Assembly: GCF_054482595.1 (NCBI RefSeq)
Contig: NZ_CM137008.1
Strand: one strand, 5' to 3'
Length of the DNA stretch: 64,000 nucleotides
This document shows, one piece after another, positions 18,001 to 21,000 of this stretch (positions within the stretch are counted from its first letter, which is position 1; every line of letters starts with the position of its first letter). Position numbers: made by a program.

Positions 18001-21000
18001 TGTTGGCGGAAACTTCGATGAAACGCAGGTGAGCAGTGCGGCGATGAAAGCCTGGCTGGCGTTCTGGGCCAGCAGTATGCATCAGCCGATGCTCTATCGT
18101 TTACAGCAGGTCAGCAGCCGCCGCTTGCTGTCGAATCTGGTGAGCGAGTTTCGCCGCGAATTGCCGCGCCACCAGGCACAGGAAGCGGGCTACGGCCTTG
18201 CCGCGCTGATTGACGGATTATGGCTGCGCGCGGCACTGAGCGGCAAACCGCTGGATAAACCTCTCGCACACTCGCTGACCCGTCACTTTATTACTCAGCA
18301 TTTACCCACCGATTAACCGAGGAGACGTGATGTCCCGAATGGCAGAACAGCAGCTTTATATACATGGTGGTTATACCTCCGCCACCAGCGGTCGCACCTT
18401 CGAGACCATTAACCCGGCCAACGGTAACGTGCTGGCGACCGTGCAGGCCGCCGGGCGTGAGGATGTCGATCGCGCCGTGAAGAGTGCCCAACAGGGGCAA
18501 AAAATCTGGGCGGCGATGACCGCGATGGAGCGCTCGCGCATTCTGCGTCGGGCCGTTGATATTCTGCGTGAACGCAATGATGAACTCGCAAAACTGGAAA
18601 CCCTCGATACCGGAAAAGCGTATTCGGAAACCTCAACCGTCGATATCGTTACCGGTGCGGACGTGCTGGAGTACTATGCCGGGCTGATCCCGTCGCTGGA
18701 AGGCAGCCAGATCCCGTTGCGTGAGACGTCATTTGTTTATACCCGCCGCGAACCGCTGGGCGTAGTGGCAGGGATGGGCGCATGGAACTACCCGATTCAG
18801 ATTGCCCTGTGGAAATCCGCCCCGGCGCTGGCGGCAGGCAACGCAATGATTTTCAAACCGAGCGAAGTCACCCCGCTTACCGCGTTAAAGCTGGCTGAAA
18901 TTTACAGCGAAGCGGGCCTGCCGGACGGCGTATTTAACGTGTTGCCGGGCGTGGGCGCGGAGACCGGGCAATATCTGACCGAGCATCCGGGCATTGCCAA
19001 AGTGTCATTTACCGGCGGTGTCGCCAGCGGCAAAAAAGTGATGGCTAACTCGGCGGCCTCTTCCCTGAAAGAAGTGACCATGGAACTGGGCGGTAAATCA
19101 CCGCTGATCGTTTTCGATGATGCGGATCTCGATCTCGCCGCCGATATCGCCATGATGGCAAACTTCTTCAGCTCCGGTCAGGTGTGTACCAATGGCACCC
19201 GCGTCTTCGTTCCGGCGAAATGCAAAGCCGCATTTGAGCAGAAAATTCTGGCGCGCGTTGAGCGCATTCGCGCGGGCGACGTTTTCGATCCGCAAACTAA
19301 CTTCGGCCCGCTGGTCAGCTTCCCGCATCGCGATAACGTGCTGCGCTATATCGCCAAAGGCAAAGAGGAAGGCGCGCGCGTACTGTGCGGCGGCGATGTA
19401 CTGAAAGGCGATGGCTTCGATAACGGCGCATGGGTTGCACCGACAGTGTTCACCGATTGCAGCGACGATATGACCATCGTGCGTGAAGAGATCTTCGGGC
19501 CAGTGATGTCGCTTCTCACTTATGAATCTGAGGACGAAGTGATTCGCCGCGCCAATGATACCGACTACGGCCTGGCGGCGGGCATCGTGACGGCGGACCT
19601 GAACCGCGCGCATCGCGTCATTCATCAGCTGGAAGCGGGTATTTGCTGGATCAACACCTGGGGCGAATCCCCGGCAGAGATGCCCGTTGGCGGCTACAAA
19701 CACTCCGGCATTGGTCGCGAGAACGGCGTGATGACGCTCCAGAGTTACACCCAGGTGAAGTCCATCCAGGTTGAGATGGCTAAATTCCAGTCCATATTCT
19801 AACCAGGAGGTTTATTTGCAATTTGACTACATCATTATTGGTGCCGGCTCAGCCGGCAACGTTCTCGCTACCCGTCTGACTGAAGATCCGAATACCTCCG
19901 TGCTGCTGCTTGAAGCGGGCGGCCCGGACTATCGCTTTGACTTCCGCACCCAGATGCCCGCAGCGCTGGCGTTCCCACTACAGGGCAAACGCTACAACTG
20001 GGCCTATGAAACAGAGCCTGAACCGTTTATGAATAACCGCCGCATGGAGTGCGGACGCGGTAAAGGCCTGGGTGGATCGTCGCTGATCAACGGCATGTGC
20101 TACATCCGTGGCAATGCGCTGGATCTCGATAACTGGGCGCAAGAACCCGGTCTGGAGAACTGGAGTTATCTCGACTGCCTGCCCTACTACCGCAAGGCCG
20201 AGACTCGCGATGTGGGCGAGAACGACTACCACGGTGGCGATGGCCCGGTGAGCGTCACCACCTCCAAACCCGGCGTCAATCCGCTGTTTGAAGCGATGAT
20301 TGAAGCGGGCGTGCAGGCAGGCTACCCGCGCACGGACGATCTCAACGGCTATCAGCAGGAAGGTTTTGGCCCGATGGATCGCACCGTCACGCCGCAGGGC
20401 CGTCGCGCCAGTACCGCGCGCGGTTATCTCGATCAGGCCAAATCGCGCCCTAACCTGACCATTCGTACTCACGCTATGACCGATCACATCATTTTTGACG
20501 GCAAACGCGCGGTGGGCGTCGAATGGCTGGAAGGCGACAGCACCATCCCAACCCGCGCAACGGCCAACAAAGAAGTGCTGTTATGTGCAGGCGCGATTGC
20601 CTCACCGCAGATCCTGCAACGCTCCGGCGTCGGCAACGCTGAACTGCTGGCGGAGTTTGATATTCCGCTGGTGCATGAATTACCCGGCGTCGGCGAAAAT
20701 CTTCAGGATCATCTGGAGATGTATCTGCAATATGAGTGCAAAGAACCGGTTTCCCTCTACCCTGCACTGCAGTGGTGGAACCAACCGAAAATCGGTGCGG
20801 AGTGGCTGTTTGGCGGCACTGGCGTTGGTGCCAGCAACCACTTTGAAGCAGGTGGATTTATTCGCAGCCGTGAGGAATTTGCGTGGCCGAATATTCAGTA
20901 CCATTTCCTGCCAGTAGCGATTAACTATAACGGCTCGAATGCAGTGAAAGAGCACGGTTTCCAGTGCCACGTCGGCTCAATGCGCTCGCCAAGCCGTGGG

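Follow-up and report, generated by a model that had tools for sequence, protein, structure and literature searches.

A TTG codon behind a strong Shine-Dalgarno sequence as the probable species-wide translation start of betA in Escherichia coli

The choline dehydrogenase gene betA in the DNA analysed here, a stretch of 64,000 nucleotides from contig NZ_CM137008.1 of the RefSeq assembly GCF_054482595.1 (hereafter the window), opens its conserved N-terminus with TTG instead of ATG, which raises the question of whether this codon is the native start of the gene throughout E. coli or a peculiarity of a single strain. The first-pass annotation, made from the sequence alone, took the latter view: it took other strains to have ATG at this place and regarded the TTG as a start-codon polymorphism that could lower the translation of choline dehydrogenase.

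The locus itself has the layout known from K-12, with betT divergent and betI, betB and betA on the same strand, and betA closes the betIBA operon; the four mechanical ORFs of Table 1 correspond, in the order given there, to betT, betI, betB and betA of the K-12 annotation. The betA product scores 1033.5 bits with the NCBIfam equivalog profile TIGR01810 (GMC oxidoreductase; cut-off 732.1), covering profile positions 1-532 of 532, and the betB product matches the equivalog NF009725 over its full length (915 bits; cut-off 593). The coordinates of these genes and of the other features discussed below are collected in Table 1.

Table 1 Features of the bet locus and of the betB-betA junction, with positions in the window
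Feature	Position	Strand	Basis or remark
betA, choline dehydrogenase CDS, 562 aa	19816..21504	+	translation; TIGR01810 equivalog
betB, betaine-aldehyde dehydrogenase CDS, 490 aa	18330..19802	+	NF009725; K-12 betB annotation maps here
betA initiation codon TTG (UUG)	19816..19818	+	sequence, RefSeq annotation, conservation in E. coli and across species
betA Shine-Dalgarno sequence AGGAGGT	19805..19811	+	7 nt complementary to the 3' end of 16S rRNA
In-frame TTG inside betB	19771..19773	+	start of the mechanical ORF 19771..21504; not the betA start
ATG in the betB frame (betB C-terminal Met codon)	19776..19778	+	40 nt from 19816, out of the betA frame
A7 homopolymer at the betA 3' end	21478..21484	+	alignment with K-12 (A6)
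bet locus ORF	15567-17600	-	mechanical ORF list
bet locus ORF	17711-18316	+	mechanical ORF list
bet locus ORF	18327-19802	+	mechanical ORF list
bet locus ORF	19771-21504	+	mechanical ORF list

Reading of the region 19600-20000 places the TTG at 19816 in frame with CAA TTT GAC TAC ATC ATT ATT GGT GCC GGC, so that a translation started there opens with (M)QFDYIIIG, the Rossmann-type FAD-binding N-terminus of choline dehydrogenase, and the GxGxxG FAD-binding motif follows just after the start. The betB frame ends with GTT GAG ATG GCT AAA TTC CAG TCC ATA TTC TAA, its stop codon TAA occupying 19800-19802, and the 13 nt between this stop and the betA TTG consist of CC, AGGAGGT and TTAT. The strong ribosome-binding site at good spacing described in the first-pass annotation is indeed present: the hexamer AGGAGG lies at 19805-19810 with a gap of 5 nt (19811-19815) to the TTG, and the first base of this short, A/U-rich spacer (U, 19811) lengthens the match with 16S rRNA to 7 nt. 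The duplex of the betA Shine-Dalgarno (SD) sequence with the anti-SD sequence ACCUCCUUA has a predicted energy of -11.0 kcal/mol, which together with the spacing makes it an SD at functional distance. AGGAGGT occurs twice in the 64-kb window when both strands are counted, 3.9 occurrences being expected, which is not above chance, and the motif is of interest for where it lies rather than for its number. A 100-nt RNA fold at the betA ribosome-binding site gave z = -1.18, that is, no significant structure, with both the SD and the UUG unpaired in the centroid; a structural RNA switch at this site, considered on the basis of the same fold, is not proposed.

From the preceding stop up to the conserved N-terminus the betA frame contains no ATG, and its sole candidate starts are two TTG codons. 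The codon at 19771, which had been recorded as an in-frame ATG, is misread in the first-pass annotation; it is a TTG inside betB. The UUG at 19816 stands in frame at the place where orthologues start, and a better in-frame start is absent.

The junction was compared across 5426 complete RefSeq genomes of E. coli, as the first-pass annotation had suggested, with a 63-mer (19786-19848) and a 31-mer (19802-19832) as queries, the latter being placed so that any 28-base seed spans the SD, the spacer, the TTG and the next 11 bases. The 63-mer was found in 5183 records and is 100% identical in 5099 of them, K-12 MG1655 included, whereas 247 of the 5426 genomes lack the junction. When an exact word of 28 bases was required, the 31-mer hit 5181 records, and with sensitive blastn it aligns in all 5183, at 100% in 5180 and with one mismatch in three. 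Two records have a single mismatch within 19805-19829, which spares the first letter of the start codon. ATG, GTG and CTG versions of the 31-mer gave zero matches in the 5183 E. coli records, and no record is identical to the ATG version of the 63-mer. Since all records lie within one mismatch of the TTG 31-mer and the queries with the three other codons were empty, a variant at the first base of the start is excluded among them. The lowest-ranked and shortest match, in strain 23CRST011, retains the TTG and deviates in that one nucleotide is missing from the CC which separates the betB stop from the SD (CC to C). The betB-betA junction was also encountered at 10 plasmid places.

This invariance does not come from a lack of betA diversity in the species. 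Over the 1861 nt at 19700-21560, identity to the window is at least 99% in 775 E. coli records, 95-99% in 3966 and 90-95% in 443, while the best 12 of the matches listed, all from independent E. coli assemblies, are 100% identical to it. Compared with two O157:H7 strains, the window betA has 62 and 74 differing sites over the whole gene, and the first difference from K-12 and from both O157:H7 strains is met only at nucleotide 147 of the gene.

The RefSeq (PGAP) annotation agrees with this start, as betA begins at the equivalent of TTG 19816 in all five strains inspected, namely K-12 MG1655 (1671 nt, WP_001159094.1), O157:H7 TR01, O157:H7 PV15-279, 23CRST011 and XH990 (1689 nt), the last of which shows no difference from the window anywhere in 19700-21560. 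The TTG is accordingly a known start, since betA is already annotated from it in K-12 and in all other RefSeq genomes inspected. Together with the NCBIfam profiles, which begin at residues 2-4 of the protein read from this codon, these annotations uphold the first-pass placement of the start at 19816 behind a strong SD.

Outside the species, betA was compared in an orthologue scan with one genome per species (GTDB), from which 80 betA loci were kept, none of them from Escherichia; with the window and K-12 the comparison set comprised 82 sequences, and the start region was extracted from each. The GxGxxG motif is present in all 82 (the window and K-12 counted). TTG occupies the homologous codon in 36 of the 82 sequences, which corresponds to 34 species besides E. 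coli, distributed among Pseudocitrobacter, about 20 species of the Enterobacter group, Huaxiibacter, Lelliottia, Leclercia, the Klebsiella oxytoca group, Raoultella, Citrobacter amalonaticus and Citrobacter sedlakii. Each of the 36 carries a GGAGGU core with an SD duplex of -11.0 kcal/mol. ATG starts were found in Trabulsiella, Pluralibacter, Cedecea, Pantoea, Kosakonia cowanii, Tatumella, Rosenbergiella, Pseudomonas and Moraxella. These orthologues share the Rossmann motif (F/Y)DY(I/V)(I/V)(I/V)GAGSAG, and those from Enterobacterales start at the homologous codon, as in Trabulsiella, where ATG CAA TTT GAC encodes the same MQFDY as in E. coli, whereas most betA genes of Pseudomonas and those of Moraxella have one or two additional N-terminal codons. 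Their SD strength is variable and often weaker than in the TTG species, the duplex energies ranging from -3.5 to -12.1 kcal/mol with a mean of -7.3.

In the gene tree ATG is the outgroup state. A single gain of TTG maps to the root of an Enterobacteriaceae clade, within which Trabulsiella and Pluralibacter appear to have returned to ATG, each in a reversion of its own. At 4-fold sites of betA the other TTG species lie at p-distances of 0.26-0.52 from the window, and with 26-52% of these sites differing, the TTG has persisted through substantial divergence. The betA of Pseudocitrobacter vendiensis is unusually close to that of E. coli: amino acid identity is 98%, the 45 nt preceding the gene are identical, and the 4-fold distance is 0.26.

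Given these data, it is hard to maintain that betA truly starts at the upstream TTG (19771), which would lengthen BetA by 15 aa at the N-terminus, to 577 aa, and we consider this very improbable. The betA ORF does have its first canonical start here, and the equivalent codon is kept in sequences from Escherichia, Pseudocitrobacter and Enterobacter, but the retention is explained by the coding constraint of betB, as the codon overlaps the betB codons for ...QVEM. The equivalent is missing in Klebsiella, Raoultella and most Citrobacter, where the TTG of MQFDY or MHFDY is the only in-frame start, and for this reason 19771 is excluded as a conserved start. It also lacks an SD, the nearby AGG abutting the codon at a spacing of about 1 nt. 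The 15-aa extension encoded between the two codons falls outside the NCBIfam betA profiles: in the 577-aa ORF, position 1 of TIGR01810 aligns with residue 19 and position 5 of NF002550 with residue 17, which are residues 4 and 2 of the protein started at TTG 19816. The ATG-using orthologues, moreover, begin at the codon homologous to 19816, and the RefSeq annotation places the start there as well. Still less credible is the idea that most strains have ATG and that the TTG of the window is a variant lowering the translation of choline dehydrogenase. An ATG does stand at the homologous codon in other genera (Trabulsiella, Pluralibacter, Cedecea, Pantoea and Pseudomonas), and the expectation of ATG may stem from protein databases, which write the first residue as M for any codon, but within E. 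coli ATG, GTG or CTG was seen in 0 of 5183 records, and the K-12 reference has the TTG as well. By the standard that the first-pass annotation set itself, this refutes an intraspecific polymorphism among the 5426 complete RefSeq genomes. An error of sequencing or assembly at 19816 is practically out of the question with the same sequence recovered in thousands of independent assemblies.

It could also be suggested that the combination of TTG and a strong SD is not a neutral relic and is actively selected as an expression-tuning device in the clade of Escherichia, Enterobacter, Klebsiella and Citrobacter. If this were so, the UUG could cap BetA below BetB and thereby avoid a build-up of toxic betaine aldehyde, or it could render the synthesis of BetA responsive to IF3 or stress. 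The invariance of TTG in the 5183 E. coli records despite betA divergence of up to 5-10%, its retention in the 34 other species and its constant pairing with the GGAGGU SD are in line with this suggestion, as is the conservation at third codon positions, which in the 34 TTG-clade sequences peaks at 0.86-0.89 between -60 and +30 around the start compared to a mean of 0.754. There is also a precedent in E. coli for an adaptive conserved non-ATG start, the GTG of lacI, which is conserved in E. coli and related Enterobacteriaceae and for which experiments have shown that GTG and ATG differ in their effect on gut fitness (Cherrak et al. 2024, PMC11445065). Like lacI, betA has a conserved non-ATG start in a metabolic locus; lacI, however, is a regulator with an experimentally shown effect of GTG, whereas betA codes for an enzyme and the evolutionary test is not significant. 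By Fitch parsimony the start base underwent 3 changes, the two reversions included, where 188 4-fold sites average 8.1; since 15% of the 4-fold sites have 3 changes or fewer, the difference at the start base is not significant, so selection for TTG is not claimed. The association between SD and start codon is phylogenetically confounded, too, as Trabulsiella and Cedecea pair ATG with equally strong SDs. Active selection of the TTG is thus rather unlikely on present evidence, although it is less so than the readings discussed above. Compensation of the start codon by SD strength (-11.0 against a mean of -7.3 kcal/mol) was considered as evidence and set aside, the contrast resting on one to three evolutionary events.

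The reading we prefer is that betA is natively translated from TTG 19816 throughout E. coli, to which, judging from the sequence comparisons, we give a probability of about 0.93. The layout of UUG and SD is essentially invariant in E. coli and common to a multi-genus clade of Enterobacteriaceae. A full-text literature search, with the 1991 bet sequence paper outside its scope, returned no statement on the betA start codon and no N-terminal or initiation data. At this start the strong SD would recruit 30S subunits and the initiator fMet-tRNA would decode the UUG, so that BetA would begin with Met (MQFDYIIIG...). Alternatively or in addition, ribosomes that have just terminated on betB may re-initiate at betA; such translational coupling of betA to betB is possible, the 13-nt gap being the one feature that points to it. 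IF3 discriminates against UUG, a codon of lower intrinsic strength than AUG, and the strong SD, together with a spacer that is unstructured and rich in A and U, would probably make up for this weakness.

About 3% of E. coli genes use UUG as a canonical start, and in reporters AUG, GUG and UUG group together at 10-100% of the AUG level (bioRxiv 10.1101/063800). As in betA, UUG in this class of genes stands at the conserved N-terminus with the SD at canonical spacing, and betA would be expected to behave like the other members, as a canonical start below AUG in strength. The betA SD is unusually strong for the class (7 nt, -11 kcal/mol) and the start lies 13 nt past the stop of the upstream gene, but neither feature is exceptional, and betA is an ordinary UUG-initiated gene with a strong ribosome-binding site.

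The record is hereby corrected in that there is neither an in-frame ATG nor a polymorphism at the betA start. Since no E. coli genome checked has another codon, a strain-specific reduction of choline dehydrogenase due to TTG does not follow, and strains are not expected, on account of this codon, to differ in osmoprotection or in how much choline dehydrogenase they express. The persistence of TTG with a strong ribosome-binding site across several enterobacterial genera makes betA a reasonable, if unremarkable, candidate for studies on the retention of weak start codons.

The real difference between the window and K-12 in betA lies at the 3' end of the gene, not at its start. In K-12 MG1655 the junction 63-mer, the TTG, the SD and the 13-nt gap are all identical to those of the window, and the 31 substitutions in the first 1660 nt leave the start unchanged. 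Near the 3' end, the window has A7 for the A6 of K-12: in K-12 the A6 puts a TGA in frame and the protein ends at 556 aa, while the A7 of the window adds MSRDLN to give 562 aa. The A7 form is annotated in the O157:H7 strains and in XH990 (1689-nt betA). A 31-mer carrying A7 had no match, which probably reflects the low-complexity filter of BLAST, given these annotated genes, and the usable count is that of the 31-mer with A6, present in 3922 of the 5183 E. coli records.

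Across 34 sequences from the Enterobacteriaceae clade with the TTG start of betA, conservation at third codon positions peaks at 0.86–0.89 from −60 to +30 of the start. The average across 1.2 kb is 0.754. The peak, although noticeable, looks like the constraint typical of translation initiation regions. Within E. coli, the window betA shows its first difference from K-12 or O157:H7 at nucleotide 147. E. coli 23CRST011 has lost 1 nt (CC to C) in the stretch from the betB stop to the betA Shine-Dalgarno sequence, which leaves an intergenic gap of 12 nt instead of 13; the TTG start is retained in this strain and is also the annotated one.

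The betA gene of Pseudocitrobacter vendiensis shares 98% amino acid identity with the window betA, and the start codons of both genes are preceded by the same 45 nt of sequence. Its distance from the window betA at 4-fold sites is 0.26, compared to 0.37–0.52 for Enterobacter, Klebsiella and Citrobacter. The similarity could reflect either close relatedness of Escherichia and Pseudocitrobacter or a transfer of the bet locus between them.

Coordinates of the features in the window and in the betA loci of P. vendiensis (L002) and E. coli 23CRST011 (L085)
Feature	Sequence	Coordinates
betI ORF, from in-frame ATG	window	17711-18316
Equivalent of RefSeq betI start	window	17729
betB formal first codon GTG (18327) and annotated ATG (18330)	window	18327-18332
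Third-position conservation peak	window	about 19756-19846
Counterpart of the 23CRST011 deletion site	window	19803-19804
A7 homopolymer, betA 3′ end	window	21478-21484
End of K-12 homology	window	from about 21593
1-nt deletion	L085	2000-2015
betA of P. vendiensis	L002	2456-4159

Matches to the 63-mer spanning the junction (window 19786-19848) were located on plasmids at 10 places in the E. coli RefSeq collection, and one genome carries two copies. No match was detected in 247 of the 5426 complete E. coli genomes, and the bet locus therefore appears to be absent from them.

The 3′ end of betA differs from that of K-12 by a homopolymer length. With A7, the window gene ends in AAA AAA ATG AGT CGT GAT TTG AAC TGA and encodes 562 aa, whereas the A6 of K-12 brings an in-frame TGA directly after AKK, giving 556 aa. 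The A6 31-mer is found in 3922 of the 5183 E. coli records with the junction, and the 1689-nt A7 form is annotated in O157:H7 TR01, O157:H7 PV15-279 and XH990. Homology to K-12 is lost about 90 nt past the betA stop; the region downstream of betA contains ykgH in K-12 and the pseudogenes ipbA and hyxR in O157:H7 TR01, and thus the bet-flanking region is variable.

Upstream in the operon, the betI ORF opens with an ATG giving a 201-aa product, the RefSeq start (195 aa) corresponding to a position 18 nt downstream, and the formal first codon of the betB ORF is a GTG adjoining the annotated ATG on its 5′ side.
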